A stretch of DNA of 64,000 nucleotides from an uncultured virus (IMG/VR IMGVR_UViG_3300049433_000291) (IMGVR_UViG_3300049433_000291); one strand, 5' to 3'. Numbered from the stretch's first letter, positions 10,469 to 64,000 are shown. Numbers and translations are program-made. Notes: generated from the letters alone by a model not told the origin.

Positions 10469-10489
10469 ACTTTTCTAGTTACTTTCCCT

Positions 10490-47367: not shown

Positions 47368-47439
47368 GGCATGCTCCTGGAGAAGTTGAAGTCGGTTTCA
47401 TGGATTCCGCCTTCTTTTCTGTGCGGCGGATAGACGTTT

Positions 47440-48135
47440 CTAAAGTATGGCGACGAGAGCCGGGTTATAGCTTGCCAATTGGCCCGCGTAGCGGCGGAGA
47501 AGCTTTCTGCCGGCGGCCAGCTCGCGCGGGTTGAGAACTGTTTTTGTTGCGAGGCGGTGACCGAAGTCTGCGTCGAATTTGCTGAATCCGACTCCGTCGC
47601 GCGTGCGAGCGCCGTCGCAATCGTTTGCAAGATATTGGAGACCTTCGGAAACGGCGTTTCGGAGAGCTGGTGTGATTACGTTTTCTAGTCGTTGCACGGC
47701 TTCAGTGAGTATGAGTTCAGTGACTTCGCCAATTTCGGCGATGGAGCGTGCGATCGTGTCCGCGGCTTCCTGCTCTGTGTTGCCGTTATGGCCTTTGATC
47801 CATTCGTAACTGACTTCGTGGATCTTCGCGGCGCTGTCGAGTCTGGCCCAGCAGTCGTGATTGGTTCTACGTTTGAATTCGCCTTTCATCGTTTCGACTA
47901 CGTAGCGCGAGTCGGAACGAACTATCACTGTGCATGGTTCTTTCAGGGATTCGAGCCCGCGCGTAACGGCGATTATTTCAGCGCGCTGGTTGGTGCTTTC
48001 GCCGATGTATTCAGCAACGGCGCGGCGGCGTCCCTGGTAGTTTAGGATAGCGGCAGCGGCGGCGCGTGTTTGGGCTTGGCCGTTTCCGAGGCAGGCGCCG
48101 TCGGCGGTGATTGTGACGAGTTTTCGTGCAGACAT
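47440..48135 (-). CDS. rnhA: Ribonuclease HI fused to an extra C-terminal domain
   Basis: ADGACLGN, STNQRAEI.A, SDSRYV, WIKGHNG..EQE.AD; extension CDGA..RDGVGFSKFD. Confidence 0.88.
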   Translation of the reverse strand: MSARKLVTITADGACLGNGQAQTRAAAAAILNYQGRRRAVAEYIGESTNQRAEIIAVTRGLESLKEPCTVIVRSDSRYVVETMKGEFKRRTNHDCWARLDSAAKIHEVSYEWIKGHNGNTEQEAADTIARSIAEIGEVTELILTEAVQRLENVITPALRNAVSEGLQYLANDCDGARTRDGVGFSKFDADFGHRLATKTVLNPRELAAGRKLLRRYAGQLASYNPALVAIL

Positions 48136-48280
48136 GATGTGCTCCGGTGGGCGACATGAAAAAAGGCGAGCCGCTTTGCGTAGTTTGCAAGCGACATGAT
48201 TGATTTGTGAGGATGACGATTTGGGCGACCCGTGGTTGGGCCGCCCAATCGTATTTGTCGGTCAGGCTTGATGACGATCC

Positions 48281-48700
48281 TCAGAAAGGAATATCGTCTT
48301 TTGGCTGACCATCGCCCTCTGCGGCTTCAGTCGAGGCTTCCGTCTCGCTGCCGGCTGCACCAGCGCGACTTCGTTTCATTCCCGCGAGGAACTGAACGTC
48401 GCTGGTGTTGATGTTCATGGTCAGGCGGGTTTCCCCATCGCGGCCTTTCCACAATTCCGGGTTGATGCGGCCCTCGAGGTAGACCGGGTCGCCCTTCTTG
48501 AGGTGCGTGGCTACCGCATCCGCGGAGTTGCCGAAGACGTTCGCCTTGAACCACAACTGCTTCTCGGTTCTGTCTTCGCCTGATCCTCGGCGCTCGTTAG
48601 CGCAAATCGAGAAAGAGGTGACGGGGTTGCCGTTGGGCATGTAGCGAAGTTCCGGGTCCGCGCCGAGATTTCCAACGACAGTTACTTTTGCAAATGACAT
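48281..48700 (-). CDS. ssb: Single-stranded DNA-binding protein
   Basis: KVTVVGNLGADPELRY...KKGD.VYLEGR; DDIPF tail. Confidence 0.95.
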   Translation of the reverse strand: MSFAKVTVVGNLGADPELRYMPNGNPVTSFSICANERRGSGEDRTEKQLWFKANVFGNSADAVATHLKKGDPVYLEGRINPELWKGRDGETRLTMNINTSDVQFLAGMKRSRAGAAGSETEASTEAAEGDGQPKDDIPF

Positions 48701-49554
48701 GATCTGAAGACTCCTTTGAGAGTGGGTGACTTTAGCTTGTTTAGTGAAATGAACGACCTGCGTTTTACGGACAAGTTGTTCGCTAATGTCAGATTCACCT
48801 GTCGGGTGAACTGACTGTGACGGTTCTTGCGGTCAGCCCCAATTTTCTTTTCGTTGTTGGAGCTAGGGACTTGTTTAGATGGAATAAGGACCACGCATTG
48901 ACCTTTCCTTTCGGAGTCGGTTTCTGAGTGGCCCTCTTTCCTTTGCGTGCGGGCTTTCGAATTGCTAGACCAGGTCAAAGTAAGTTTCTTACTCCTGGTG
49001 GTCTATCGATTGCCCTTCTTTGTTGTATTGCGCTCAACCCAGTGTGGTGCGAGCACTCTTCTTTTTTGGAATGTGCTTCAAGCTGTCTGCCTCGGTTTAG
49101 ATTCTTGTTTAGATCAGCGTTTGTGATCGGGCGGCGTGTTTGAGGGCCGCTATGATTGTTTCGGCGTTGATGAGGAGTAGAACAGAAAGGTAAAACGCAA
49201 GGCTCATTGCGAGCGTTTGGTGGCTATGCTGGATGAACAGGTAGTTGGTTGCGTTTTCAATCATCTCTAACTCCTTGGCTGCCAACGCCTATGTTGGTTG
49301 CAACACCTTACTTTCCGCTAACTTTGTCCGGTGCCTAAAACTGGAGTTTTGCGGGGCTGGATGTGAAGAATCACATCCGAGGGTCCGATTCTGGTGCTGC
49401 TGGTGTTTTCGGATCCGAAACACGACTATGGTTTGCACGCCTTGTGCGAGCGCGGGAGGCAGGGACGCGCTCTTGCCCGTTGGGACGTGCGAGGGAAAGC
49501 CGGGCGCTCCCCAGGAACTGTTTCAGAGTTTGCCGTCAGCTTAAATCCGCTCTT

Positions 49555-49815
49555 TTATCCGTGAAGTGATGGTCCGTCGTATGCGATGGTCCAGCCATTT
49601 TGGAGAGTGATTTCGAGTTGTTCTTTGAAAACCGTTTGGGCGGTTTTTGCTTCGCGGTAGATGCGTATCGCTGGTTCTTCTAGTCTCGTATCAATGGTGA
49701 CTAATCGGCTCTCATTGGGAAAGATTGCGAGGCTGAAGAGGCCGAGCATTTTTGTTTTGACGAGGAGTACGGTTCGCCTCGTTTTGGGTTTTGGGAGTGT
49801 TTGTTTTATGAACAT
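49555..49815 (-). CDS. Small hypothetical protein
   Basis: Co-oriented 86-aa ORF. Confidence 0.55.
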   Translation of the reverse strand: MFIKQTLPKPKTRRTVLLVKTKMLGLFSLAIFPNESRLVTIDTRLEEPAIRIYREAKTAQTVFKEQLEITLQNGWTIAYDGPSLHG

Positions 49816-49855
49816 ATCGTTTTTAGTTGGTGGTTGGTAAGAGCGGAAGATAGTG

Positions 49856-49898
49856 CCTACAGCACGGTTGTTCGCTGTCGCAATTACCGTGCTGTAGG
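49856..49898. terminator. 13-bp perfect inverted repeat (terminator or stabilising hairpin)
   Basis: CCTACAGCACGGT-N17-ACCGTGCTGTAGG just downstream of the 49911 stop; no T-run. Confidence 0.55.
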
Positions 49899-49910
49899 TG
49901 ATGAGAAGGT

Positions 49911-51845
49911 TTAGGCTGCGACTGGCTCAGCTACGCCGGACGAGGCTTTGAGGCTTTCCCAGACGGTTGCTGTGTCAGCGGCCGTGAGCAAGTGGATCAT
50001 GTTATGCGCTTCGTTCGGACGGCCGGTTTGGCGATCCTGGTAGAAAGCGAAGCGAAGGTACATGCGTTTACCCTGGCTGGCGCTTTGGATCATGGCGAGC
50101 AGTCCGTTAAAGATGCGTCCATACAGCTCGGGCCGTTCGTCGCGGAGAAGGCGGCAAATTCGTTCACGCTCTTGGTTGGGTAATGTGTGCATTGCAGTGG
50201 CCAGGGTGCGGAGTTCGCGAGTTGGAATCTTCCTTGCTATTGCGATGACGGGGATTGCGGGAATGAAGGTGCGTTCCCTGCCGTCGACGTTTTTGATCAC
50301 TTGCACTGCAGTTGATTCAAAGCGAGCACGTTTTACCTCATAGAGAGTGTTAAGGGCAGTGAACATTTTGATCGAGATGCTATTTTTCAGGCGTGCTTGA
50401 TACGCTTCCTGAATCGTGGTGATAAGGGGGCGCACTTCGGAAGCTTCAGCGATCGCGTTGTGGAAAGCACGGAATGCTGCAGAACGATTCATGCTGCGAA
50501 GAATGAAATCGCGCTGCATGGCTTCGAGTAAAATGTCCAGGACCTCACGGACGTACTGGCGCTCCTCACGGTTCGGGTAGACAGAGACGCGATAGGTGTA
50601 TTCGAACAATGCTGTTCGGGTGCCAACGGGTTTGCTCTGGGGGCACGTTCCATCGGCGCGGAGACGTGTTGGCTCAAGCCGAGTGCTGACAGCGCGCATG
50701 GTGCGTGTCACGCGGGCGTATTTATCGGAAGGGTCGCCGTAAATTCGGTTGAGGCTGAATTCGATGAAGCCGTCGATGGTTTCCATGTCCTCGCCTTCGA
50801 TAAAAAGCTGGCGAATGTCGCTGGCGATGATTCTGGGTTCCTGCGGCAAGTAGTCCTCGGTAACGTCGTCTTCGAGGGTGCCGTCAACGACGAAGCGTTC
50901 GCCGTCGCTCATGTGGAGGGAAACTACTCCGCCTTCGCTATATTGCTCGGTTACGCGCTCATGGCTCTCGAGGACGGCTTCAAGGCCTTCTTCCTGCATT
51001 CCGGAGTCGGCCATATCGCTCAGGTAAGATTGGAATTGAGCCTCTTCGTTGTAAACGATGCCAGAGGAATGGGCCGGGGAGATCTTGCTGCAGATTGCTT
51101 TGAGCTCGGCAGCAAACGGGCCTGTTGCTTCGTGATTGAACAGAACTTCTTCGCAACGTAGTTCGAAGAGATCCTGGCGTTCGCGGGCGGTGAGTTGTTC
51201 GTCGCGAACTGAGTAGATTTCGACTGCTTGGGGTTCTTCAAGTAAGCGATCTTCGTTTGTGGACGTGACGTCAGTCAGTGCCATTGCGAAGAAAGCGATT
51301 TCTTTTAGAACTTGGCGGTTGATTTCGGCGCGAGCGTCGGAGATCTCGTCCAGTGAAGCGCCACGGTTTGCAATCATGTATTGGCCATGACGGGTGCTGA
51401 TCTCGCGATAGCCCCATGAAGCCCAGATTTGCAGTGAGCGGGGATCGGCTTCGACGCCAGCGGAGACGGCCTGCTTGACGACGCGTACGAATTCAACGGC
51501 ATCGTCGTTATTGGCGAGCTGCTTTTCGGCGTAAGGGACCGCCAGGATTTTGTATTGCTGTTCGGCTTCGTCGACCGGTCCGAGGTCGATTTCGACACGG
51601 CCCAGTACACGCCCGCCGATGAGTTGCGTCGATTCGAGATCAATGCGCGTGATGTTTCCGCTGTAGAGAGTCTGTAGTCTTAGTCCCTGGCGGCTGCTGG
51701 GTAGCACGCTGTCGACGTCAACTCGGCGGTTGGCGAACTTTTCGAGATGAGCGTTGAAGTCATAGTTCGGGTTGCCAGTGTCGACGGGGTGAAACAAAAG
51801 GTGAAGCGAGTTAGGGGCGTAACGTTGAAGAAATTGTGTTTGCAC
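49911..51845 (-). CDS. Large hypothetical protein
   Basis: GTG 51845 with GGAGG RBS; no family recognised. Confidence 0.75.
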   Translation of the reverse strand: MQTQFLQRYAPNSLHLLFHPVDTGNPNYDFNAHLEKFANRRVDVDSVLPSSRQGLRLQTLYSGNITRIDLESTQLIGGRVLGRVEIDLGPVDEAEQQYKILAVPYAEKQLANNDDAVEFVRVVKQAVSAGVEADPRSLQIWASWGYREISTRHGQYMIANRGASLDEISDARAEINRQVLKEIAFFAMALTDVTSTNEDRLLEEPQAVEIYSVRDEQLTARERQDLFELRCEEVLFNHEATGPFAAELKAICSKISPAHSSGIVYNEEAQFQSYLSDMADSGMQEEGLEAVLESHERVTEQYSEGGVVSLHMSDGERFVVDGTLEDDVTEDYLPQEPRIIASDIRQLFIEGEDMETIDGFIEFSLNRIYGDPSDKYARVTRTMRAVSTRLEPTRLRADGTCPQSKPVGTRTALFEYTYRVSVYPNREERQYVREVLDILLEAMQRDFILRSMNRSAAFRAFHNAIAEASEVRPLITTIQEAYQARLKNSISIKMFTALNTLYEVKRARFESTAVQVIKNVDGRERTFIPAIPVIAIARKIPTRELRTLATAMHTLPNQERERICRLLRDERPELYGRIFNGLLAMIQSASQGKRMYLRFAFYQDRQTGRPNEAHNMIHLLTAADTATVWESLKASSGVAEPVAA

Positions 51846-52247
51846 GGGTTGCCTCCAGATGCAAAGGACGGAAATAGTTAGGTAAAGCACCCATTGCAGT
51901 CAGAACTAAAACCCTGCTTTGGTTTTTGAAGTTGGAGATGTCGGGGGGAACGTGTGAGGAACGCTCGTCCGAATTAGCAGATGGGGAACGGCTGAGAGAA
52001 GGCGCCCAACATGGAATCGTAGAGGCTCGCTGAAATCGCTGAGCTCCTTGTGTTACGTGCTGCTCGCATTCCGAATATTTTTTGGAGCATGGTTGGTTAG
52101 AGCACTCGGATACAACACGGGCTTTGGAGGAGGCTGATCTTCTGTTTGGGTTGCGAAGTTAGAGAGGTGCGGGTTGTGCGAAGTTGAGGCTACTTCGTTT
52201 CTTTGCCGTGCGCGGAAAAGCCGCCAGCCGTAGGCGCGGTAGTGTCG

Positions 52248-52326
52248 GGAACTACTTTAGGAGTTCCGGAGCAATTTTTTCGGCGAGAGATTTTGTCTCC
52301 CGGTTTGGGCCGCGCTTAGCGCGGCC
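52248..52326. other. Multi-hairpin non-coding element
   Basis: GGAACT..AGTTCC, GAGA..TCTC and GGCCGCGC-TTA-GCGCGGCC hairpins. Confidence 0.45.
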
Positions 52327-52474
52327 TGGTGTTTTTCGATCTTGTTAAGGAGAATCTTGGTGGTGGCAGTGGCGCGTGGGCGACACAATCTTGGCGCCGT
52401 GAGAATTTAGAACGACCCACGCTAGTGAATGAGGCACTTGCGTGGGTCGTTCGCTCTCTCAGGAATTGGAATTT

Positions 52475-52666
52475 ATGGTATATGTGTTCCAATATGGCTC
52501 GAATACGCTATCGAGCCGGCTGAATTCCGAAACCAGGTTAAGAGGTGATGCGCGCCCAATAGGCGCAGTCTATACGGAAGCGAATTTTGAGCTGGATTTT
52601 GACGTGTGGAGTGATACAAACAACTGTGCCGTAGCGGATATCATCCGCGCGGATCGTTGCGAATAG
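52475..52666 (+). pseudogene. Truncated gamma-glutamylcyclotransferase-like gene
   Basis: YVFQYGSN N-terminal signature and 'FELDF...S....AVADII'; stops after 63 aa. Confidence 0.6.
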
Positions 52667-52743
52667 TCCAAGCTTGAGCGATGGTGTCAGTTGCTTTAGA
52701 TAAATAGCGCATCAGACTAGATCTGCATGAGGGCGCAAGACAA

Positions 52744-54171
52744 GTGACAAACCGACATTGGCCAGTTGAATACGTAGATCAATTAATCGTCGGAGAGCCT
52801 AGCAGCAACATAGCGATTTGCTGTTTTTGGTCCAGTAAAGACCGTGTGCAAGCCGTGCTCTCTCCAGAGAGCTATTGTGTGATCGGAAATCTCTATTCGC
52901 GAGCGGGCCTTAGCCCAATGCTGCGTAACATACTCGCCAAGCCCTCGATCCGCTATTTAGTCCTCACGGGCACGTCTCTCACCGACAGTGAAGAAGCGAT
53001 GCTCGATTTCTTCAAGCACGGCGTGGACCAAGACTGGAAGATTATCACCAACGGCGCGCAAATCGACGTTGACTTACCGCTGCCAGCATTGAATGATGTC
53101 AGGAAAGGTGTCGAGCTAATTGACTTGCGGGGCTCCCAGCCTTTCGAGACAAGATTTCATGAACTAACGGGCAGCCTGGAGCCGCGTCCAGCATTTGCGA
53201 AACCGCGTACCTTTCCAAAGACGCCGCACACAGTCCAGACCTTTCCGAGCGAGTTTAGCGGCTTCATCGTTAGGCAGAGGACAATCTGTGAAGCCTGGCT
53301 CGAGATCATATGGACCGTAATGACCTTTGGGCATACGTCGCCAACGGATTATGGATTGGAGCAGAAAGAGGTCCTAGCGCTACTCTCAGTGATTGAAGAG
53401 CCACAGTCGCACCTTGACTATCTCCCGGATTGGTCCCCATTCACCAAGGAAGACATAACGAATTATGTGCACACCTTTTTGGATGCTGAGAGCCATGACA
53501 ACGTGGCATACAACTACGGCTATCGGCTGCAGTCTCATTGGACCGAGGATCAGTTGGAGAGTATGGCTACTGAGTTAAAGCGTTCAGGCCATTCTCGTCG
53601 TGCTGTCGCAAGCCTTTGGGACCCGCGTGAGGATAGTGGAACATCGGATCCTGTGTGTCTCACCACAATTCAAGCCGCAGTCCGCGATGGCAAGCTTCAT
53701 CTCATGACTTATATACGCAGCAATGACATGTTTCGCGCATATCCGCTCAATGCTGCTGCGCTGGCCGCTTTGCAACAGCGTCTTACCGAGCGAGTGGGAA
53801 AGATCGCTATCGGGTCATTAGAAATTCTTTCGTTTTCAGCACACATTTATTCCGATTGCTGGGACCTTTGTGAGCGCGCCAAGGCTGAGGCTTCCAGACT
53901 CAATCGAGGATTTCAGCAGGATGATCGCGGCAGCTTTGTTTTTCGCATGGACCATAAGCGCCTTGTCGCCGATCACTACAGTCCGCTAGGCGATCTTGTG
54001 CAAACGTTCACGTCGAAGAACGCAAGCGAGTTAACTGAGCTAATCGCACCTTTCGTCAGTCGAGTTGATCATGCGATGTATCTAGCAAGAGAGATTGGTC
54101 GTCTTGCCTCGGCCTTTGAAAATGGTCAAGCCTACGAGCAAGATGAGGTTAGAAAAGGTCGAAAAGGATAA
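52744..54171 (+). CDS. Thymidylate synthase-family protein with MtrA-like N-terminal and DUF4346-like C-terminal domains
   Basis: SRRAVASLWDP, PVCL (catalytic Cys), YIRSNDMF.AYPLN, SAHIY; N-terminal IGNLYS..GL...LRNILA.P.IRYL.L.G; C-terminal D.RGSF...SR.DHA.YL.REI...YEQD. Confidence 0.85.
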   Translation: MTNRHWPVEYVDQLIVGEPSSNIAICCFWSSKDRVQAVLSPESYCVIGNLYSRAGLSPMLRNILAKPSIRYLVLTGTSLTDSEEAMLDFFKHGVDQDWKIITNGAQIDVDLPLPALNDVRKGVELIDLRGSQPFETRFHELTGSLEPRPAFAKPRTFPKTPHTVQTFPSEFSGFIVRQRTICEAWLEIIWTVMTFGHTSPTDYGLEQKEVLALLSVIEEPQSHLDYLPDWSPFTKEDITNYVHTFLDAESHDNVAYNYGYRLQSHWTEDQLESMATELKRSGHSRRAVASLWDPREDSGTSDPVCLTTIQAAVRDGKLHLMTYIRSNDMFRAYPLNAAALAALQQRLTERVGKIAIGSLEILSFSAHIYSDCWDLCERAKAEASRLNRGFQQDDRGSFVFRMDHKRLVADHYSPLGDLVQTFTSKNASELTELIAPFVSRVDHAMYLAREIGRLASAFENGQAYEQDEVRKGRKG

Positions 54172-54176
54172 GAGCT

Positions 54177-55217
54177 ATGAACGGTGCGCCCTCACTGGAA
54201 GCAGAACTAAGACGTCGAGCGGATCTTAACGAGGATGATGCCGTAGAGCTTTGGGGGCGCTACAGCAGTATGAAGTCATACCTATCGCGAGAATACTATC
54301 CCTGGATTCAGGCCAATAGTTCCTTTTTGACTGATCACGGAGATCAGCACATAAAATCAGTGATTCAGGCAGCCAGCGCACTTATGAAAAGGCATCTGGA
54401 TCCTGAGACCGACATCAGGAGGAGAACGCTGTCTTCTTTGGATCTATTCTTAATCCTCTCTGGCATTCTGTGGCACGACGTGGGGAATGTTTATGAAAGG
54501 TCTGGCCATGCTGCACGCGTTGCACAGATGACAGAGGGAATCAAGAAACTTGGATTTCCCGACTTAGCAATTCACCGTCTCGTTGTAGAAATTGCGGCGG
54601 CTCACTCAGGCAAGACTGGATTGACGAAAGCTCGTCCTGAGGAGGATGCCTCGATGCTCCATGGAACGTACACTGTCTATACGAGAGGTTTAGCTGCTAT
54701 CGTGCGATTAGCCGACGAGGTGTCTGAGAATCGCTTCCGTATCAGCACGGAGCTATTACCAGACGTTCCTGATGAGAACCGTATATTTTGGCAGTACGCG
54801 AACAGCGTGACCGCTTCAAGACCTGAGCCTGAAAGAAGGCGAATCGTTATAACCATAGAGTTACAAGAGGAAGTGGCTATTGAAAGATTCCTATGTCCCG
54901 AGTTTCCCAGTCGAGTAGACGACGAAAGCAAGATGCACTTAATGGATTACATTGTATGTCGGCTGGAAAAGATGAACAACGAAAGGGCCTATTGCTCAGC
55001 CGCATTTGGGAGATACGACACGATCGACGAAATCGAGGCTAGGTTTGCCCTCCTGAATGGCATCAATCGGATAAAGGAAACTACTGTTTTCTTTGGAGAT
55101 GCCGGTCTCAAAAGCGGTGATCAGAACGCTTACCCAAACATAAACGTCTTCGAGGAGTTTTATACTGACCATCCAGATTGGAGACCAGAGCGGATTAAGG
55201 AGGCGCTGTCGCAATGA
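54177..55217 (+). CDS. HD-domain metal-dependent hydrolase (HD-CE-like)
   Basis: FLTDHG..HI..V, WHDVGN, H, AAAHS, LAAIVRLADE. Confidence 0.85.
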   Translation: MNGAPSLEAELRRRADLNEDDAVELWGRYSSMKSYLSREYYPWIQANSSFLTDHGDQHIKSVIQAASALMKRHLDPETDIRRRTLSSLDLFLILSGILWHDVGNVYERSGHAARVAQMTEGIKKLGFPDLAIHRLVVEIAAAHSGKTGLTKARPEEDASMLHGTYTVYTRGLAAIVRLADEVSENRFRISTELLPDVPDENRIFWQYANSVTASRPEPERRRIVITIELQEEVAIERFLCPEFPSRVDDESKMHLMDYIVCRLEKMNNERAYCSAAFGRYDTIDEIEARFALLNGINRIKETTVFFGDAGLKSGDQNAYPNINVFEEFYTDHPDWRPERIKEALSQ

Positions 55218-57055
55218 GCCAGAACAATACATCAGTTGACGGCTCAACCACCTTCACAAATCCCTTTGTTGTTGAGAGCCCTGAAAAACTTACCACCGCA
55301 CAGATAGTGGATCTATTCGTCACAAAGTTTACGGATATCGAGACCGTAAAGCAGCGCAAACATACGTTCATCTGGGGTTCACGCGGTGCCGGCAAGAGCA
55401 TGATGCTTAGATACCTAGAGCCCCAATGTCAAAGTCTTGTTTCGGGTGGCATCAGCGAGTTTTTTGGACAAGGTAATCCGTTTTTTGCCGTGTATTGTCC
55501 CTGCAAAGAAGGACAACCGAACAAGACAGAGCTTCTCCTGCTTGATAAGTACTCCACACTCATTATTAGTGAACACATGATGAACCTGTCGATTGCCGAC
55601 AGGTTAGTTGACTCATTGCGGATACAGTTCCCGAAAGATTTCTTTGGAAAAGAGGAGTGTACTAGCTTCGTCAACAAAACAGTGAGACTCTTTGATAGGG
55701 CGTCAATCGCGTCTTCGATTGAGCAGGTTAACTCCGTGGTGGACCTCGAAACAAACCCGCTTGATTGGCTTCAAGAACTTTTCATAGCCGAGAATAGAAA
55801 AGTTAGCAATTATTTGACGCGAAACGCCTTGAGCGGCGGTGGCGCGGTCTACGAAGGCGCCACCAGCGGTTACCACGACTTCATGCTACCTTTGATGAAG
55901 TTGGCGCAAGGATTCGCCAGTCTAAATTCCGCCTCAATATATGTGCTACTTGATGATGCGGGCAAGTTGACTAAAGAGCAGCAGAGCATCGTCAACACCT
56001 GGATTGCAAATAGAGATCAGTCAGCGATCTGTTTGAAAGTATCAGCGCTCCGCGAAGAATACAAGACCTTCCTAACCCGTGACGGTGGGCTAATTGAGAA
56101 GCCACACGATTACTCCAAGGTTGATGTCGAAGAACTCTACACGCAATCCAAAGAAGATTACGCTCAAAAAGTAAAACTCATTGCAAATCGGCGTCTAGAA
56201 TTATCAGAGGTCCCAACAAAGGACATTGAGCAGTTTCTACCGTCGGATCCGACCGAAGAAGCTCTGTTAGACGACTTCAGGAAGGAGACCGCAGCACAGT
56301 GGGAAATCGAGGGTCAGCCTGGGCGCCAGCGAGACTACGTGACCAGATATGCGACCGCAAGACTATTTCAGCATTTAAGAGCCAGTAGACAGCGCAAGAG
56401 TTATGCGGGCTTCCAGAATATTGTGCATTTGTCCTCCGGCGTTGTGAGAGATTTTTTGGAGCCGTGTTATCTGATGTTCGATGAGTATGTCAGCGGAGAT
56501 CGGGACCCGAGCACAGTTTCAGTCATCCCTCCCGCGTTTCAGAATGAGGTACTGTTCAGATATTCGGAAGAACTGATCTTAGGAAAGTTCGAGGATATTC
56601 GAAAGAACCTACCCCCGGAGAAATGGCCCCAGGTTGATGCGCTAAAAACGCTGTTGGAATCGCTCGGACGACTCTTTTACGAGAGGCTCCATGATCCGGA
56701 AGCGCGAGAGGCGCGGTTGTTCTCTTTTACTGTAAGAGGCCAGGTTACTGCTGACGTGGCAGATGTGCTCGACTTAGGTGTTCGTCATCGCTACTTTCAG
56801 CTTCGCACGTATAGCACGAAGGAAGGCGGCGGTCGGGAGAGCTGGTACATCCTCAACCGGTGGCTGTGCCCAGCTTACAAGCTCGACCCGACCGGCTTTG
56901 AGGGAAGGATCTCTCTTACACCAAGATTCATTCAGTTAGCCACCGAAGATCCCGATAGATTTGTCCGACTAAGACTGAAGCAAATGGACGATGACTCGCC
57001 GGACAAGGATAGACAGCCCACTTTGTTTTCGCTTGAAGAGGAGGCGGTGGGATGA
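55214..57055 (+). CDS. P-loop ATPase (ORC/CDC6-like, STAND-related), copy 1
   Basis: NPF, GSRGAGKS, LLDD, SSGVVRDFL; ATGA overlap with the HD gene. Confidence 0.85.
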   Translation: MSQNNTSVDGSTTFTNPFVVESPEKLTTAQIVDLFVTKFTDIETVKQRKHTFIWGSRGAGKSMMLRYLEPQCQSLVSGGISEFFGQGNPFFAVYCPCKEGQPNKTELLLLDKYSTLIISEHMMNLSIADRLVDSLRIQFPKDFFGKEECTSFVNKTVRLFDRASIASSIEQVNSVVDLETNPLDWLQELFIAENRKVSNYLTRNALSGGGAVYEGATSGYHDFMLPLMKLAQGFASLNSASIYVLLDDAGKLTKEQQSIVNTWIANRDQSAICLKVSALREEYKTFLTRDGGLIEKPHDYSKVDVEELYTQSKEDYAQKVKLIANRRLELSEVPTKDIEQFLPSDPTEEALLDDFRKETAAQWEIEGQPGRQRDYVTRYATARLFQHLRASRQRKSYAGFQNIVHLSSGVVRDFLEPCYLMFDEYVSGDRDPSTVSVIPPAFQNEVLFRYSEELILGKFEDIRKNLPPEKWPQVDALKTLLESLGRLFYERLHDPEAREARLFSFTVRGQVTADVADVLDLGVRHRYFQLRTYSTKEGGGRESWYILNRWLCPAYKLDPTGFEGRISLTPRFIQLATEDPDRFVRLRLKQMDDDSPDKDRQPTLFSLEEEAVG

Positions 57056-58074
57056 GACATTGGTCCGTAGACGAACTGACGAACCACGGCGGTCTTCAGA
57101 CGATACGAGAAGGAAGCGTCCCAGACGACATGTTTCTCGTTTCTGCCAGTTATGAAGCTAGAACCCTTACCGTGGCGCAGTCTCTCGCCGGTGACTATAG
57201 GGCCACACGAGGAGTTATATATGTAAACCAAGAGCTGTTGAGAGATCCTCAGAGCGATAGAGTTAGGCCACACCTTGATGAGCTAGTACATCTTTTGCTC
57301 TCTCACTGTGAGTCAATTGATCAAGCGGAGGGCAGTTGGCTTGATCCGAAGCGCCAACTCTTAGCCCTGCGAAGGGCATTAGTTACGTCCGCATACGAGC
57401 CGATGCAGGATGTTGCTGTGACCGTTGACACCACAACCTTCAATCGAGAATCGCTCTTGACTGCTATGGCCCTACTCCGAAATCATTTTCCCGCTTCGAA
57501 AATAAGGGTAGCCTATACGTCACCTCAAAAGCACGGGGAATGGCTGAGCCAAGGTTACCGAAGTGTGCGAAATGTAATGAGCTTCGCTGGAATTCAGCAA
57601 TCCAGCCGTCCCACACTTCTGGTTGTTTTATCTGGTTTTGAACCTGAGCGGACTTTGAAACTCATAGAGGAGCATGAGCCATCGAAAGTCTTACTCGGAA
57701 TTGGGGATCCTCCGACAAATCAGCAATTCTTGCAAAGGAATCTCGATGAACAAAAGCTAATACTGGCTAGACAGGAGGTTGAGAAGTTCAGTTTTCCAGC
57801 AAGTGACATGCTGCTCTGTCGCGACTCGTTGGAAACTCTTTTGCAAGCGTACTTGAAGAGTCACAACATCGCTTTAGCTCCAATGAGCACCAAACTTTCT
57901 ACGCTTGCTGTCTTCCTGGTCGCCGAGGAGCATCCGGAGATTCAGGTTACTTACTGTGTTCCTGGAGAATACAACACCGATAGCTATTCTTCGGGCGCGG
58001 ACAGCGTATTCGTTGGTGAACTGCCACAACGCTCGGTAGAAGCGAAAGCTTTGGGCGTTCCGGATACTAGTTGA
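57052..58074 (+). CDS. ATPase partner protein, copy 1 (tandem Rossmann/CARF-like fold suspected)
   Basis: ASYEAR, VDTTTF, GFEPER, APMSTKL; ATGA overlap; paralogue of 60826..61803. Confidence 0.7.
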   Translation: MRHWSVDELTNHGGLQTIREGSVPDDMFLVSASYEARTLTVAQSLAGDYRATRGVIYVNQELLRDPQSDRVRPHLDELVHLLLSHCESIDQAEGSWLDPKRQLLALRRALVTSAYEPMQDVAVTVDTTTFNRESLLTAMALLRNHFPASKIRVAYTSPQKHGEWLSQGYRSVRNVMSFAGIQQSSRPTLLVVLSGFEPERTLKLIEEHEPSKVLLGIGDPPTNQQFLQRNLDEQKLILARQEVEKFSFPASDMLLCRDSLETLLQAYLKSHNIALAPMSTKLSTLAVFLVAEEHPEIQVTYCVPGEYNTDSYSSGADSVFVGELPQRSVEAKALGVPDTS

Positions 58075-58151
58075 ATTCAGCGTCTTAACAAGGATTGTAC
58101 GTAGCGTTGTACTTCGACTCGATGAGCGCGAGCTGATAGGAGATCATTTAC

Positions 58152-58186
58152 TAGTCCCTTGGTCTTGGTTCAAACCTGAGGGCCAA
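58152..58186 (+). pseudogene. Degenerate tRNA 3'-half-like remnant
   Basis: TAGTCCCTTGGTCTTGGTTCAAACCTGAGGGCCAA resembles variable loop plus T-arm plus acceptor 3' strand; no D-arm, no CCA. Confidence 0.35.
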
Positions 58187-58351
58187 CGGCGGCGACACAT
58201 CCAAGAGAATTGTTAGCTCCTTCATCAGTAAGTGTCGGTCACGCACTCCATTTCGAGGCCCAATTCAACCTCTCGCAGCATTCAAGACAGTCGGGGGGGG
58301 CAATACACGACTGGGAACGGACCTACTTGCCCGATGAGGAGAAAACCTGGT

Positions 58352-60829
58352 ATGGCAATCCCATTCCTCACCGTTGCGATCGGTTATATGGCGGGTCTCG
58401 GCAAAGGCCTAGCCGTTAACTTGGCAGCAGCAGAGATCTACGCAAGATTCAAGAAAGAGGACTTATTCTCATTGTTGGAGCGCTGCCTTGAGGATGCTAT
58501 GAAAAACCGATCTCATATCCTCGATAGCGCAGCAGTCTTACCAGGAGGATCTGTTCAAGGTGCGTACTTGGATAAAGAAAGGCTCCGGGATTACTTGGCA
58601 AAGAACCAGTCTATCGTCCCATCGCCCTCTGAATCAGGGGCGGAGAACCCGTGGCGAGAATATCTGAAACCCTTTGAGGAAATCATTGTTATTCCCACTT
58701 TCAAAGCCGAAAGCGAACGCCTAAATTCCATACAGGATGTGCTCGATGAAGCTTCGCGACTCTTTACCGCACGAGTTCCTTATCAGCAGCCTGCATTCCA
58801 AGAACTGTTGCTGAAATTCCAGGAGAAACACAGCGACGAACACAAGGAAATCATCAAGAAGATCGATGCATTAAAACCAAGTGGTCCTTCTCTATTAATC
58901 GAAGTCGGGCATGATGAAAACCCAATCGCGGAGATTACAGTGAGCGCATGGGTCAATCCTTTTTCGATCGTCGCGGCTGACGATTTGGAGCTCACCAATC
59001 CAGAACACGTCAGACAGATTAGGAACCTTTTCATTGCCAGATACACTGACCTGCCAACAATCCAAAAACACTACAATACTATCCTCGAAGGCCAGCGCGG
59101 TACTGGGAAGACAATGATCATGAAGTATTTAGCCTTCGAAACTCAAATCCTAGAATGGGTTGAGAAGAAGAAACGGCAAGGTGCCGAATTCTTATCGTCC
59201 CCGGAGAATTTCATAGGTGTCTACTCAAAGCTCGGTCAGGGTGTTTTTGACAAGACTGACTTTGAGGCTATTAGCGACAAGACCAGGCGTGATCGCATCT
59301 TTGAACATCGACTCACGCTACAATTACTGTCTGACGTTCTCGATACGATGAAAGCCGTATACCAGCACTTCCCTCCTAGCACCGAAGACGTAAGAAGAAT
59401 TAAGCAAGCACTGAACTCCCTTTTGAAAACCAACGGGACCATAGATGTATGTCTGACGGCGAGTGATTTGATTAGAGCGGCTCAAGATCATATTTCCTTC
59501 ATTTCAGTCCAAGAGGTAGACGAACACTTGGGTTCGGTGTCACCAGGTGGTGGAACCAGCTCGACAGACTTTAATCCAAGCCTGACACTGTCCGGACAAC
59601 TGATACCCTTTCTTAAGTTGCTTCGACAATCGTGCAGTACAAGCGTGCCATTCTTCCTCATGCTAGATGATTTTGATGTACTCGAGCCATTTCAGCAGGA
59701 GAGAGTTTTCAAAACGGCTTCGTCTAGGCAATTGGGCACAGTCTGTTTCAAGTTCGGTGTCATGATTCATGGCAAAAAGGTTTTGCTATCGGGTGAGGGT
59801 AGAACGTTTCGCAATAGCGATGACTTTAACCGGATTGACCTTGACTGGACCGAGGGAGGGCTCCATGAGAATTACCAGAAATCGCTTATTGATATTGCCC
59901 ATGCTCGTTTGGAAGCTGCCGGTTCAGGTTGGAACGCCCAACTGTCATCGTTGCTCCCAGAATGGCAGCGCGGTAATGAGATATTTCTCGAGGTCAGAAC
60001 AGTAATGGAGTCTGAATGGGAAACGGACGAAAAGCCAACCGACTCCAAGAGTGATTACGTTTCAAAATATGGAAGCGCCAGATTCTTCCAGACGCTTAGA
60101 AAAAGAAAAATCAGGATGCGATATGCAGGCCTCGAATACATTACGATGGTCTCTTCGGGTATCTATCGTCAGTTTTTGGAAATCTGCAAGCTGATTTTTG
60201 ATCGTGCTCACGATGAAGGCTGGATACCAGAAAACGGCGGAGTTCGCGCTGAGATTCAGGATATAGCAGTGCGCGAGTATTCTGAGGAAATGATCCAACA
60301 GTTTTCACGCACATCCGGGGACGCTCAATCTCTGCTTCACGGCAATATTGAGGTCACTTCCTCACATATGACTACACTTATTGATAGCCTTTGTGACGTT
60401 TTCTATTCGCGGCTTCATACTCCGGTTGGTGTACTGGGGAGTGGCGAGCCTGAAATCATTTGCGTGGCAGTGCGTGATGATCTTGGTCGGTGCCCGGAGG
60501 CTGACATCCTATTAAAGATTGCTGTCAGAGAATCAATCCTTCATCGGTTTCAATACGCGCCAAAAACTTCGGGCGGTCCGCCTCTTCCGGCTTTCATGTT
60601 GAATAGAAGATTAGGTCCACGCCGGGACTTAAGCATCAGGCGTATGCAAGGGCGAATTGAGGTTGAAGCTGCTGACATCATTTTAGCGGCGAAAGACCGT
60701 AGAGAGTTTTTTCAGAAGATGCAGGGAAAAAAGGTGAATGCTGACCGAACGAGCATAGACGATACATCGCAGCAGGTTGGCCTTCCGTTAGGAAAAGTAA
60801 TGGGAGAGTCTGAACAGACTGAGCAATGA
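58352..60829 (+). CDS. P-loop ATPase (ORC/CDC6-like), copy 2, with extra ~190-aa N-terminal domain
   Basis: ATG 58352 after GAGGAG; NPF, GQRGTGKT, MLDD, SSGIYRQFL; paralogue of 55214..57055. Confidence 0.85.
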   Translation: MAIPFLTVAIGYMAGLGKGLAVNLAAAEIYARFKKEDLFSLLERCLEDAMKNRSHILDSAAVLPGGSVQGAYLDKERLRDYLAKNQSIVPSPSESGAENPWREYLKPFEEIIVIPTFKAESERLNSIQDVLDEASRLFTARVPYQQPAFQELLLKFQEKHSDEHKEIIKKIDALKPSGPSLLIEVGHDENPIAEITVSAWVNPFSIVAADDLELTNPEHVRQIRNLFIARYTDLPTIQKHYNTILEGQRGTGKTMIMKYLAFETQILEWVEKKKRQGAEFLSSPENFIGVYSKLGQGVFDKTDFEAISDKTRRDRIFEHRLTLQLLSDVLDTMKAVYQHFPPSTEDVRRIKQALNSLLKTNGTIDVCLTASDLIRAAQDHISFISVQEVDEHLGSVSPGGGTSSTDFNPSLTLSGQLIPFLKLLRQSCSTSVPFFLMLDDFDVLEPFQQERVFKTASSRQLGTVCFKFGVMIHGKKVLLSGEGRTFRNSDDFNRIDLDWTEGGLHENYQKSLIDIAHARLEAAGSGWNAQLSSLLPEWQRGNEIFLEVRTVMESEWETDEKPTDSKSDYVSKYGSARFFQTLRKRKIRMRYAGLEYITMVSSGIYRQFLEICKLIFDRAHDEGWIPENGGVRAEIQDIAVREYSEEMIQQFSRTSGDAQSLLHGNIEVTSSHMTTLIDSLCDVFYSRLHTPVGVLGSGEPEIICVAVRDDLGRCPEADILLKIAVRESILHRFQYAPKTSGGPPLPAFMLNRRLGPRRDLSIRRMQGRIEVEAADIILAAKDRREFFQKMQGKKVNADRTSIDDTSQQVGLPLGKVMGESEQTEQ

Positions 60830-61803
60830 TGGAGTCAATAAGCGAAGTGCTTGGTCAAATTGAGCCGACCGCTGGTGATAAGGATTCAGTCCTCATAACG
60901 TGCGCTAGCTTTGAGGAGCGTTCAACTGCGGTGGCGCAACGACTCGCTCAGAATTATGCCGCGGAACATACCTTCATTTTTCGGTCAACCGAATATGGGG
61001 ACTTGGGGGACTCACCTGAATACTTTCAATTTATCGAAAGCAAAATGACTAGCATTAGTAAGAACAAGCCTAGTGTGATCAAATTCTCCATTGATCACTC
61101 GATCCCTTCCATGGCCCAGTTTGAAGGCTCCTACCGGGAACTCAAAGCGACCTCGTTGGTTAGCAACGTCTCAGTGGACGTTACAACATTTCCACGGCAG
61201 GAATTGTTAATGCTGCTGCGCGTTTTGGACAGCCAATCCGATCTTGCCTCCACGCGGCTCTTCTACGGAGAGCCGCTTAGGTATTGCACCGAGGACGCGG
61301 GCGGATGGCTCACTAGAGGAGTCAAATCTGTGCGCCCCGTTCCTGGCTTCGGTGGAGTTCAGCCCCCGAACAAGAAGAAGAATCTGCTGATAATGTTTCT
61401 GGGCCATGAGGATGAGCGAGCTGCAATTACATGGAAGCGACATCAGCCGAGAAAAACTATTGCTATTGTCCCGGATCCGAACTATCGGAAGGAGATGAAC
61501 GGCATAGTTGAAAGAACGCATCAGCCGCTGTTTACGAAACTGAGCACAACGGAATTCTATCCGGCAGTTCCCGCCCGAGGGATAGTGGAGTCCGAGAATG
61601 CGGTGTTGAGGATATGGGAGGAGCATCATGAATCCTACTACATAGTTGTGGCTCCTCTCGGGACTAAGTTACAGACGTTGGGTATCTATAGAGCGGTGCG
61701 GCGAAGACCGGATATTCAGATCACGTATGCGATACCTTCAATCTATAACTACCGGAATTATTCTGTTGGGGTAAACCGCATTTGGGAGATCCATTGGAAC
61801 TAA
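60826..61803 (+). CDS. ATPase partner protein, copy 2 (tandem Rossmann/CARF-like fold suspected)
   Basis: ASFEER, VDVTTF, GHEDER, APLGTKL; ATGA overlap. Confidence 0.7.
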   Translation: MMESISEVLGQIEPTAGDKDSVLITCASFEERSTAVAQRLAQNYAAEHTFIFRSTEYGDLGDSPEYFQFIESKMTSISKNKPSVIKFSIDHSIPSMAQFEGSYRELKATSLVSNVSVDVTTFPRQELLMLLRVLDSQSDLASTRLFYGEPLRYCTEDAGGWLTRGVKSVRPVPGFGGVQPPNKKKNLLIMFLGHEDERAAITWKRHQPRKTIAIVPDPNYRKEMNGIVERTHQPLFTKLSTTEFYPAVPARGIVESENAVLRIWEEHHESYYIVVAPLGTKLQTLGIYRAVRRRPDIQITYAIPSIYNYRNYSVGVNRIWEIHWN

Positions 61804-61879
61804 GAACGACTCTTTTCAACGACTGTTTAGAGTCAACCGTTCTAATCGGATTACGAAAGCTAAACTGTTCGGGACAAGT

Positions 61880-63670
61880 ATGTCGAACGTAACTTATGTC
61901 ACATCCTTACTGTCGCGGCAATATAAGGATCCGTCCCTTAATAACCATCGTGATCCACTAGATGAAATAGTATTTATTCTCCTTTCCGAAAAGACCGACG
62001 AAGCTAAGTACACAACCGCCTTCAGAAATTTGAAGGCTCGCTTTCCTCGCTGGACAGGAGTTCTCAGCGCGCCCGTGCGCGAGATCAAGACGGCGATCGA
62101 GACCGCCGGAATGGGTAACCGACGCGCAAATCTCCTTCGTCGACTATTTAAAGCCATTGTTGAAAGGTTTGGCGCTCTGGATCTTTCAATGCTTGCAGGA
62201 ATGTCTTTGGAAGAAGCTGAGGCCGAACTGATTCAACTGCCAGGGATCGGACGCAAGGCCGCGCGATGTGTATTGCTGTATTGCTTCGATTTTCCTGCCT
62301 TACCTGTTGACGTGCACACTTATAGATTAGCTATTAGGTTAGGCATCCTTTCACGTCGGGTTTCTTATGAACAATCCCACGAAGCGTTGCCGCGCCTCGT
62401 TCCATCTCATTTGCGTCGGCGTTTCCACGTAAATGCAGTAGCTCATGGACGCGCCCGGTGCTTTGCCCGCAAGCCCGACTGTAATGGCTGTCCGCTGGCA
62501 GAACACTGCTCTTATCCGGAGGCGGTTAGACCTTTGCGGATCGTCGCGAGGCCTGAGCCACTTGCCATAGATCTTTTCGCTGGTGGTGGCGGATTAAGCC
62601 TAGGGTTTGAAAAGGCGGGTTTCCGCATCGTGCAATCGGTCGAGAGTAATTCAAGAGCCGCAGCTACATATGCACACAATAATCCTGACGTGGATCTTAT
62701 TGAAAGAGATATAAGGCAGATCAATCCGCGCACCTGTTTAGCACGCCTCGGACTTAGGCCTGGCGACCTGACTGCCTTAATCGGGGGGATTCCTTGTCAG
62801 GGATTTTCAGAATCAAACCGCCGCACGCGGAATTCAGCCAACCCTAATAACCATCTTTATAAGCGATTTATTCGGTTCTTGGATGTGCTTCGGCCAGCAT
62901 GGTTCGTGATAGAGAATGTCGCCGGCCTGCGAACGATGGAGCGCGGCTTGATTCTGCAGCGAATTATTCGCGAATGCAAAGCACTTGGCTATGAGGTTAA
63001 TTGGCGGGAACTCAATGCCGCCGATTTTGGAGTCCCTCAGGTTCGTCGCCGCATATTTATCATTGGAAATCGGTTTGGCTTGCCGATTCCGTTTCCGGAG
63101 GCGACGCATGGTCCAGGATGTCAACTGCGAGTAACGGTGCGTAAGGCGCTTGGCGATTTGCCCGTTCTTAAAAATGGTGCTTCCAAAGATTATCGGCCGT
63201 ACGGAAAAACTGGCCGAGGACTGACTAAGTACCAGCGCATGATGCGGGCTTCGAGGAACGGGACCGGCGAAGTTCAGGGGAATCTGGTTACACGAAGCAC
63301 AGACGTAATTATCAAGCGTTATCGGCACATACGGGCTGGGGGGAATTGGGAGGACATACCAACTGAACTGATGATCAATTATGAGGATCCTTCGAGATGT
63401 CACACTGGTATTTATCATCGATTAGAGTGGGACAAACCAGCCAAAGTTATTGGAAATTTTCGAAAGAACATGCTTATACACCCTCAACAGCATCGAGGCT
63501 TGTCGGTAAGAGAGGCCGCACGTCTTCAATCGTTTCCGGACGACTATGAGTTCCTGGACTCGATCGGATTCCAGCAACAACAGGTGGCCGATGCCGTACC
63601 GCCGCTCTTGGCGGAAGCGGTTGCCAAGCACATCATACGAGCTGATCGAACAATGGGCCCCAAACGATGA
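61880..63670 (+). CDS. Fusion of an HhH-GPD endonuclease III-like DNA glycosylase ([4Fe-4S]) and a DNA cytosine-C5 methyltransferase
   Basis: LPGIGRKAA, PVDVH, CFARKPDCNGCPLAEHC; then DLFAGGGG, PCQGFS, ENV, Q.RRR, RLQSFP, DAVPP in one frame. Confidence 0.9.
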   Translation: MSNVTYVTSLLSRQYKDPSLNNHRDPLDEIVFILLSEKTDEAKYTTAFRNLKARFPRWTGVLSAPVREIKTAIETAGMGNRRANLLRRLFKAIVERFGALDLSMLAGMSLEEAEAELIQLPGIGRKAARCVLLYCFDFPALPVDVHTYRLAIRLGILSRRVSYEQSHEALPRLVPSHLRRRFHVNAVAHGRARCFARKPDCNGCPLAEHCSYPEAVRPLRIVARPEPLAIDLFAGGGGLSLGFEKAGFRIVQSVESNSRAAATYAHNNPDVDLIERDIRQINPRTCLARLGLRPGDLTALIGGIPCQGFSESNRRTRNSANPNNHLYKRFIRFLDVLRPAWFVIENVAGLRTMERGLILQRIIRECKALGYEVNWRELNAADFGVPQVRRRIFIIGNRFGLPIPFPEATHGPGCQLRVTVRKALGDLPVLKNGASKDYRPYGKTGRGLTKYQRMMRASRNGTGEVQGNLVTRSTDVIIKRYRHIRAGGNWEDIPTELMINYEDPSRCHTGIYHRLEWDKPAKVIGNFRKNMLIHPQQHRGLSVREAARLQSFPDDYEFLDSIGFQQQQVADAVPPLLAEAVAKHIIRADRTMGPKR

Positions 63671-63778
63671 ATGATTAGCCAAGCTTCAAGAACTTTTCGG
63701 CTTCTGCTTGATTGCGCTCTTCTCTGCGTTTATCTGTTTCGAGTGTTTTGATTCTTCGGTAACGGTGGCTGTGTACAT

Positions 63779-64000
63779 TTATTGAAAATCCGTTTCAAGG
63801 CCCGGGGGAATTGGGAATTCGTTAAGGCATGAGCGACATTCGACACGTTCATTGGTTTCTTCATCTTCGTCGTACACTTGGTAGAGGCCATTTATCGAAA
63901 GTACGCCGTCTTTGAGGCCTTCTATCTCGCGCCAGGTGGTGTGATTAGCGAGATATCGAAAGCCTTCTCCGTGTTCGGTCGGATCGTTGCCTTTATAACC
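63779..64000 (-). CDS. Hypothetical protein, C-terminal part (runs off window)
   Basis: Own translation: open frame GYKGNDPTEH...VECRSCLNEFPIPPGLETDFQ* ending at TAA 63779. Confidence 0.55.
   Translation of the reverse strand, partial: GYKGNDPTEHGEGFRYLANHTTWREIEGLKDGVLSINGLYQVYDEDEETNERVECRSCLNEFPIPPGLETDFQ

Follow-up and report, generated by a model that had tools for sequence, protein, structure and literature searches.

Seven genes in a 64,000-nucleotide stretch of DNA from an uncultured virus (IMG/VR IMGVR_UViG_3300049433_000291), the whole of which is called the window here, form an island that we read, with a probability of roughly 55%, as a tandem pair of systems from a single family directed against mobile elements. 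In this family an ORC-CDC6-like ATPase and a stand-alone tandem-CARF protein are combined with a DNA methylase and a swappable effector, and the best reading of the sequences is that of a methylation-linked, ATP- and nucleotide-sensing abortive-infection system. System 1 would consist of a thymidylate synthase, an HD-CE phosphohydrolase, ATPase 1 and CARF 1 (52744-58074) together with the methylase, and system 2 (58352-61803) of CARF 2 and ATPase 2, whose effector position is taken by a fused N-terminal domain. An earlier sequence-only reading of the window had treated all seven genes as one system; the second ATPase and CARF pair proved to be a separate, paralogous two-gene module. We infer immunity as the function of the cassette from its effector types, its location on mobile elements and the names of its families. 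The cassette is strongly conserved across bacterial phyla and in a haloarchaeon, and it moves on mobile elements.

Pattern scans based on the CARF alignment yielded 63 loci, 15 from genomes and 48 from metagenomes. Open reading frames (ORFs) were called in all of them and searched with two kinds of query, the seven proteins of the window and small profiles for ThyX and Vsr made from the loci themselves. Four loci (L015, L061, L062 and L063) were left out for having no CARF-1 ORF of at least 70 amino acids, and the remaining 59 fell into 45 groups at ≥ 90% CARF identity, some of which join short contig fragments. An ORC-like gene was directly upstream of the CARF gene in 41 of the 45 groups, an HD-CE gene was upstream of the ATPase in 29, and a cytosine-5 (C5) DNA methylase of the same lineage as gene 7 was encoded just before HD-CE or just after CARF in 37. 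Contig ends cut the other 4, 16 and 8 groups, respectively, and none of the three genes was absent from any group in which it could be evaluated. The order HD-CE, ORC-like, CARF was fixed in every locus. The grouping of HD, ATPase with partner, and methylase proposed in the sequence-only reading thus has no counter-example among the evaluable groups.

These cassettes span at least six bacterial phyla and a haloarchaeon, the named hosts being Acidobacteriota, Dehalococcoidia, Syntrophales, Armatimonadota, Planctomycetota, a 'delta proteobacterium' and Haloarcula argentinensis, and three IMG/VR contigs held the same gene set. A Yoonia plasmid encoded the methylase, HD-CE, an ORC-like protein and a CARF-2-like protein, all but the methylase annotated as hypothetical. 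Many of the cassettes were chromosomal, beside integrases, toxin-antitoxin genes or restriction genes. Across 25 cassettes the mean pairwise identity was 0.54 for the ATPase, 0.44 for HD-CE, 0.46 for CARF and 0.49 for the methylase domain. Pairwise identities of HD-CE, ATPase and CARF co-varied (Spearman 0.71-0.75), as they did with those of the methylase (0.48-0.53), the pairs being non-independent. Since the same set occurs in distant bacteria and an archaeon, the cassette is most likely an anti-virus system. It is scarcely credible that unrelated genes gathered by chance in a variable region to form the island, an outcome that the earlier reading had allowed for. The island is indeed cargo in a variable spot of its element, and the second ATPase and CARF pair is truly a separate insertion, but the genes are translationally coupled, and their set and order are repeated in 45 non-redundant groups from different phyla, which puts the arrangement far outside what chance would produce. 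For the core of HD-CE, ATPase, CARF and methylase, chance accretion is already contradicted.

Domains were called in all seven island proteins with Pfam, PADLOC and NCBIfam. Gene 2 matched the HD-CE family (PF24391) at 59.7 bits, against a Pfam cut-off of 27, and ATPases 1 and 2 matched PF24389 at 302.5 and 203.3 bits. In HD-CE the metal ligands H58, H100-D101 and D180, together with H54, H111 and H143, were invariant in 24 sequences; in ATPase 1 the Walker A (G55..G58xG60-K61-S62) and Walker B (D247-D248) residues were invariant in 25. Genes 4 and 6 had no Pfam match, and both matched the PADLOC model 'CARF6--CARF_CARF_CARF' (PDLC01917), with E-values of 1e-73 and 1.3e-43. The fold of the CARF partner in a full VIA structure search was two Rossmann-like CARF domains in tandem, similar to Can1 and SAVED, so that both the models and the fold bear out the original description of these genes as CARF-like. 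Foldseek had placed tandem USP-like domains of cation-chloride transporters at the top for the CARF model, at TM scores of 0.25-0.30; this candidate was rejected, the VIA search having put Can1/CARF clearly first. CARF 1 had 162 relatives at E ≤ 0.001 in a collection clustered at 90%, all of the named ones 'hypothetical', and a profile search of 1.84 billion representatives found 2,469 family members, 483 of them at E ≤ 1e-30.

The best match of the HD-CE profile among solved structures was only the HD region of an exopolyphosphatase (E 0.064), and Foldseek returned nothing for HD-CE at E ≤ 0.001. Its top fold matches were GppA/PPX, cyclic-nucleotide phosphodiesterases, YpgQ and alarmone hydrolases, with no nucleases among them. 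These matches bear on an improbable alternative, that of true restriction in the manner of BREX or restriction-modification, in which HD-CE would be a Cas3-like HD nuclease loaded by the ORC-like ATPase onto unmethylated DNA to cut foreign DNA. The additional invariant histidines H54, H111 and H143 are compatible with a two-metal centre, for which the Cas3 HD nuclease is the comparison, and the methylase was never missing where its presence could be judged. The combination of a methylase, an ATPase of the ORC/Cdc6 clade and a phosphoesterase also parallels BREX (PMC12839542). However, the fold matches are phosphatases, phosphodiesterases and alarmone hydrolases rather than nucleases, sister systems place a TIR, PRTase-CE, metallophosphatase or kinase in the same position, none of which cuts DNA, and PADLOC found no component of BREX or of any other system in genes 1 to 6 beyond the CARF6 models. 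Nor did Pfam, PADLOC or NCBIfam recognise in any of the seven genes a restriction endonuclease or helicase-nuclease subunit, such as lies beside the methylase in classical restriction-modification systems (types I-III), in agreement with the earlier remark that no restriction endonuclease was evident; nuclease activity of HD-CE itself is a possibility.

The wider PF24389 family was sampled in two phyla, in which it was found in 11 of 401 genomes (the phylum of G004) and 7 of 401 genomes (the phylum of G006; this tally includes G055). Leaving out a pseudogene in G575, loci already collected and G055, this unbiased sample consisted of 14 new loci. A CARF6-family gene directly followed the ATPase in 12 of the 14, with none recognised in L157 and L161. 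A DNA methylase was adjacent in 12 of the 14, some of the matches being weak, and its class varied: C5 in three (L151, L152 and L153), D12 in three (L148, L155 and L159) and N6_N4-type in six (L149, L150, L154, L156, L158 and L160). The effectors were HD-CE, PRTase-CE, a fused TIR, a fused kinase, or unknown. In L160 an ISL3 transposase is encoded where the ORC-like match breaks off (9000-11722), a sign of decay.

The second ATPase and CARF pair and the methylase

ATPase 2 was homologous to ATPase 1 over the whole ATPase body (hhalign E 3.5e-74), and CARF 2 was 27% identical to CARF 1 (E 1e-33). The PF24389 match spanned residues 253-809 of ATPase 2, preceded by a fused N-terminal domain of about 210 amino acids that had no Pfam match. 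There were 63 relatives of ATPase 2: the closest 23 shared this N-terminal domain, 29 carried TIR and 10 carried a metallophosphatase. Because relatives carry TIR or metallophosphatase there, the N-terminus is, on this comparison, the effector slot. A NACHT N-terminal helical domain, suggested for the same region by a sub-threshold Atlas lead (score 0.84), was rejected at structural TM scores of ≤ 0.30.

In L001 and L016, which hold the nearest relatives of system 1, the CARF gene runs straight into the methylase gene and there is no second pair. The window's additional 3.7 kb sits in this spacer between CARF 1 and the methylase, and judged from this comparison system 2 is inserted there. Because of that position, one methylase probably serves both island systems, which would make the window a natural example of two sensor modules sharing one methylase. 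Relatives of CARF 2 followed TIR-ORC or ORC genes in L153, L150 and L149. L153 was a complete unit of a TIR-ORC gene, a CARF-2-like gene and a glycosylase-C5 methylase very close to that of the window (E 5e-255). A viral scan with the ATPase 2 alignment found no relatives, and a query with ATPase 2 against 401 genomes of the G006 phylum found just two distant ORC-like genes.

Homologues of CARF 1 and ATPase 2 (88%) and of the synthase (79%) share one longest-contig size, 203,252, which hints that the doubled form exists elsewhere. ThyA-like homologues likewise share longest-contig sizes with ATPase-2-like proteins (22064 and 12182) and with TIR-ORC proteins (8735 and 7378), which is a hint only.

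Gene 7 matched HhH-GPD/EndoIII with its iron-sulfur motif and the C5 DNA methylase family (214.4 bits) in Pfam, and its nearest solved relatives were DNMT1 (162 bits) and Deinococcus EndoIII (101 bits). The glycosylase part retains the catalytic Lys (GIGRK), the Asp (PVDVH) and the four cysteines of the iron-sulfur motif, and the methylase part matched the type II, DruM and DrmMII C5 models in PADLOC. The repair partner differed by locus: in some it was Vsr, in others a glycosylase, either fused or encoded as a separate protein of about 220-250 amino acids. The target-recognition stretch of the methylase (window residues 405-504) was alignable across 25 cassettes, with a majority-residue frequency of 0.38-0.61.

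Two loci had unusual methylase arrangements. In L015 (10001-11816) a glycosylase-C5 methylase very close to that of the window is preceded by a 29-residue CARF remnant and lies near a DUF499-like ATPase, and this locus looks like a decayed cassette. In L004 a separate C5 methylase, DUF4928 and Vsr are encoded directly upstream of the cassette (703-3446), giving two C5 methylases at that locus.

Linked thymidylate synthases and the predicted mechanism

The ThyA core of gene 1 scored 61 bits in Pfam, in a match limited to profile positions 84-219 that left the N-terminal half of the thymidylate synthase fold unaligned. Alignment to the L. casei enzyme and other thymidylate synthase structures identified PVC(305)L, SRR, R325-S326-x-D328, N336, H367 and Y369, and the catalytic set, including Cys305, the RR pair and the uracil-specifying Asn336, was invariant in 26 sequences. 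ThyA-like orthologues were found in the same position in L001/L016, L024 and L039. Among the first 15 loci, in which the flanks were searched with Pfam, the unrelated synthase ThyX was directly beside the cassette in six and a ThyA-like gene was found only in L001. The linked ThyX has the RHR motif and scored 220 bits to Thermus ThyX. By these residues, both synthase types look like ordinary enzymes converting dUMP to dTMP.

A synthase was adjacent to the cassette in 23 of the 45 groups (18 ThyX and 5 ThyA-like), in keeping with the original placing of ThyA within the system; 17 groups could not be judged, and since a synthase was scored as positive even on short flanks, the comparison of these 23 with the 5 groups that had at least 1 kb on both sides and no synthase (L006, L007, L013, L031 and L046) overstates its frequency. 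The synthase was found beside only two of the 14 unbiased PF24389 loci (L151 and L158) and was missing beside the other 12. Being missing from the five well-covered groups and from 12 of the 14 unbiased loci, the synthase is inessential. No substitute gene family recurred in the flanks of the synthase-free loci, in which there were no Pfam matches. In L158 a ThyX gene follows a cassette of N6_N4 methylase, PRTase-CE, ORC-like and CARF genes, so the synthase link extends beyond C5 methylases and HD-CE.

The linked synthase was an extra copy in four of the five genomes checked. Canonical ThyA was encoded elsewhere in the genomes of L010 (423 bits), L011 (353 bits) and L001 (344 bits), and the genome of L003 had a separate tandem ThyX besides the linked copy; the search of the fifth genome, G003, gave just one ThyA-like match, which was weak and contained a TGA stop. 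There were at least four ThyX lineages, mutually ≤ 30% identical, and two ThyA-like lineages, mutually 26-28% identical. The position and strand of the synthase gene varied between loci, and ThyX identity did not track ATPase identity (Spearman 0.03). By these comparisons the synthases are polyphyletic, coming from at least six lineages unrelated to the cassette tree, and this number of unrelated lineages, together with the extra copy in four of five genomes, points to repeated recruitment of a synthase to the cassette. Repeated, independent capture of two unrelated kinds of synthase is rare comparative evidence, pointing to a link between immunity and thymidylate metabolism. DefensePredictor, for another system, also lists a thymidylate synthase domain among those whose part in defence was newly validated (PMC13092281).

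Several loci showed further features. The flanks of L001, the closest relative of the island, encode the pterin/folate enzymes FolE2 GTP cyclohydrolase and an FTCD-type cyclodeaminase (3914-4933 and 12899-13600), and a TIR-domain gene lies further downstream. In L005 the ThyX gene is split into two ORFs of 159 and 101 amino acids (12321-13107), a sign of decay. In L161 the gene next to a kinase-fused ORC-like ATPase, on the minus strand and 404 amino acids long (11072-12286), faintly resembles pyrimidine-nucleoside phosphorylase (E 1.5e-4 and 7e-4, both below cut-offs) and may be another thymidine-metabolism neighbour. The architecture of gene 1, an MtrA-like domain, ThyA and a pterin-binding domain, was also found in cyanobacteria and Patescibacteria, annotated as thymidylate synthase.

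The same architecture is common in viral contigs, with 76 IMG/VR loci (L067-L142) at about 30% identity (about 27-33%), and the element carrying the island also encodes a ribonucleotide reductase. Both would suit a non-immune module for the nucleotide pool or for DNA modification that serves a conjugative element, as in phages that rebuild pyrimidine pools. This explanation is very improbable, however: none of the 76 viral loci had HD-CE, ATPase or CARF genes, the two types of synthase resemble ordinary enzymes that turn dUMP into dTMP, many of the cassettes sit in chromosomes next to integrases, toxin-antitoxin genes or restriction genes, and an ATPase and CARF pair whose effector is exchanged for TIR, PRTase-CE or a kinase has the hallmarks of a conflict system.

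In the abortive-infection system proposed here, the C5 methylase would mark the host's own DNA, and the fused EndoIII-like glycosylase, or Vsr in other loci, would mend damage at methylated cytosines. The ATPase, with CARF as its nucleotide-binding input, would detect infection as unmethylated DNA, a diffusible nucleotide signal, or both; in the favoured form the ATPase would read DNA and CARF a nucleotide, jointly releasing an effector that targets nucleotides. In work from the group that named the family, an ORC-CDC6-like component of a different system is given the part of DNA sensor (10.64898/2026.10.19.760177). Once turned on by the ATPase, HD-CE may hydrolyse nucleotides and stop replication, giving abortive infection or dormancy. 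The extra synthase would be a selected accessory, most likely one that buffers or tunes the thymidylate/pyrimidine pool, which the system would either disturb or sense. The architecture raises the questions of what CARF senses without a cyclase and why an abortive-type effector needs a methylase.

An alternative clearly less probable than the proposed system is a trigger derived from the methylome. A phage that degrades the chromosome would release 5-methyl-dCMP, which would bind the tandem CARF and cause the ATPase to assemble and activate the effector, with no self/non-self reading at the level of DNA; the system's own methylase would exist to load host DNA with the methylated base. The sensor partner has a nucleotide-binding fold and the island has no cyclase to make a signal, the effectors of the family are nucleotide- or NAD-type enzymes or kinases rather than nucleases, and the class of methylase is interchangeable, yet a methylase was present in 12 of the 14 unbiased loci. 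The variable stretch of the methylase also stays alignable, unlike a diversifying restriction-modification barcode, but the methylase could just as well have kept its specificity by co-evolving with a domain that reads DNA. We know of no CARF that binds a methylated mononucleotide. There is a precedent in PUA-Cal-HAD, which is fired by Dam-derived m6-dAMP (10.64898/2026.01.15.699771). A methylome trigger would, however, leave the role of an ORC/Cdc6-type ATPase unexplained, such a component being treated as the DNA sensor of a different system (10.64898/2026.10.19.760177).

A related and equally tentative proposal, to which we lend about as little weight, is that thymidylate synthesis is integral to the family, which would read or set a 5-methylpyrimidine/thymidylate signal. 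Under this proposal 5-methyl-dCMP from the system's own methylome could be the danger signal, with the synthase tuning the competing pool of dUMP, dTMP and dTTP; alternatively, the synthase could prevent thymineless death as the effector depletes nucleotides. If true, the family would be a form of immunity with a one-carbon/pyrimidine metabolic arm of its own, recruited on at least six occasions from both ThyA and ThyX.

Several points weigh against the reading of the island as two tandem abortive-infection systems. There are the synthase-free loci and the overstated synthase frequency described above, and the pool-buffering role given to the synthase is a guess. CARF domains normally bind cyclic oligoadenylates, though no cyclase was found in the island by Pfam. 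Searches of the ATPase and CARF profiles against solved structures gave nothing meaningful, and PADLOC gave no system-level match for genes 1 to 3. The literature search found no experiment, named system or description of the cassette, the two source papers of the families lying outside that search, so that a prior description is possible.

Layout of the island and its carrier element

All seven ORFs are on the plus strand at the coordinates given in Table 1, and the flanking ORFs at 49911-51890 and 63779-64000 (partial) are both on the minus strand, an orientation already recognised in the sequence-only reading. The tight coupling of the genes that it reported was also reproduced: the TAA of the thyA-like gene is followed after 5 nucleotides by the ATG of the HD gene, and ATGA overlaps occur at 55214 (HD/ATPase 1), 57052 (ATPase 1/CARF 1) and 60826 (ATPase 2/CARF 2). 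For gene 5 the ATG at 58352 appears the more likely start, since it has a GAGGAG ribosome-binding site and close homologues are all about 800-825 amino acids long.

Table 1. Positions of the island genes and of the hairpin at its left side, counted from the first nucleotide of the window
Feature	Position	Strand	Details
Gene 1, ThyA-like thymidylate synthase, putative accessory of system 1	52744..54171	+	475 aa (amino acids), GTG start; MtrA-like N-terminus, ThyA core, PterinBD-DUF4346
Gene 2, HD-CE phosphohydrolase, predicted effector of system 1	54177..55217	+	346 aa; PF24391
Gene 3, ORC-CDC6-like AAA+ ATPase 1, predicted sensor/switch of system 1	55214..57055	+	613 aa; PF24389
Gene 4, tandem-CARF (CARF6-family) partner 1, system 1	57052..58074	+	340 aa; PADLOC
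Gene 5, ORC-CDC6-like ATPase 2, system 2	58352..60829	+	825 aa; alternative GTG start 58232 (865 aa)
Gene 6, CARF6-family partner 2, system 2	60826..61803	+	325 aa; PADLOC
Gene 7, EndoIII-like glycosylase fused to DNMT1-like C5 methyltransferase	61880..63670	+	596 aa; Pfam
Terminator-like hairpin closing the shared backbone	52305..52329	+	Terminator scan: 11-pair stem, then T run

The window encodes an integrase, a ribonucleotide reductase, an SLT transglycosylase, a type IV coupling protein, a relaxase, a single-stranded DNA-binding protein and RNase H, and by this gene content it is a conjugative element. In the nearest genome, G001, the backbone was 96% identical over window positions 44001-52393, where the match ends, and past 52393 G001 diverges into small unknown ORFs; no match to a PF24389 or ORC-CDC6-like gene was found in G001. 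The left border of the island is at about 52393, just past the hairpin, and the right border is outside the window. Since the 96%-identical element of G001 is without the island, the island is, by this comparison, cargo on the conjugative element. A search of plasmid DNA with the whole island as query gave no match. No RNA family was found by Rfam at E ≤ 1 within 51500-64000, and promoter and terminator scans did not exceed the shuffled background except at the hairpin.

The ribonucleotide reductase, a large subunit with a TSCPD domain (7955-10468, minus strand), is the second nucleotide-metabolism gene of the element besides the synthase. A giant ORF of 1982 amino acids on the minus strand (30821-36769) adjoins the relaxase and has an N-terminal DUF4326 as its sole Pfam match. 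The minus-strand ORF to the left of the island (659 amino acids) belongs to the backbone common to G001; Pfam assigned it to no family, and its one NCBIfam match was faint.

Relation to known systems

The sequence-only reading had called the combination of genes undescribed while suggesting an overlap with computationally predicted 'HD-CE' loci. That overlap is real, the families existing as Pfam PF24391 and PF24389 and as the PADLOC CARF6 models. 'Undescribed' holds as regards experiments, and perhaps for the synthase link, but not for the component families, which are already in Pfam and PADLOC. The predicted HD-CE, PRTase-CE and Calcineurin-CE systems with ORC-CDC6-like ATPases reportedly go back to Nicastro, Burroughs, Iyer and Aravind (Nucleic Acids Research, NAR, 2023), and the CARF6 clade is said to stem from Makarova et al. 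(NAR 2020). The component families had thus been predicted computationally, as the pairing of effector and ATPase probably had. Three features were not found in print in the literature covered: a methylase that is nearly universal and varies in class, synthases captured again and again, and one methylase shared in tandem.

The island is closest to the conflict effector systems (PF24391, PF24390 and PF24389), in which genes 2, 3 and 5 scored above the model cut-offs and of which sister loci use PRTase-CE, TIR, a metallophosphatase or a kinase in the effector position. The 'CE' of these names stands for 'conflict effector' (10.64898/2026.01.15.699771). Within the CARF6 clade of PADLOC-DB ('CARF6--CARF_CARF_CARF' and 'CARF6--CARF_STK_AAA'), the CARF proteins of the island stand alone: they carry no effector domain, and neither CRISPR genes nor a cyclase gene lie beside them. 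They resemble Can1, Can2, Card1 and the SAVED receptors of type III CRISPR and CBASS in having two CARF-like domains in one chain, but the island sensor has no fused nuclease or effector and is paired with an AAA+ ATPase. No Cas10 or CD-NTase was found in the island or in the annotated flanks of related loci.

In Dcm-Vsr and methylase-Mig pairs a C5 methylase is paired with a T:G mismatch repair enzyme, and the C5 methylase here is likewise joined by an HhH-GPD glycosylase or Vsr. The difference is that the island glycosylase scores higher to endonuclease III (101 bits) than it does to Mig (45 bits), and that it keeps the catalytic Lys. BREX shares with the island a methylase, an ATPase of the ORC/Cdc6 clade (BrxC in BREX), a phosphoesterase and the lack of a classical restriction nuclease (PMC12839542). 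However, PADLOC found no PglZ, BrxA, BrxB, BrxL or PglX-type N6 methylase in the island, BrxC is twice the size of the island ATPase, and a CARF partner is not part of BREX. PUA-Calcineurin-CE-HAD differs in having a PUA-like sensor, other effectors and no ATPase, and in relying on host Dam rather than on a methylase of its own (10.64898/2026.01.15.699771). Its nucleotide-depleting effector is triggered by a methylated nucleotide from the host methylome, and in this respect PUA-Calcineurin-CE-HAD may serve as a working model for a system that is linked to a methylase and senses nucleotides.

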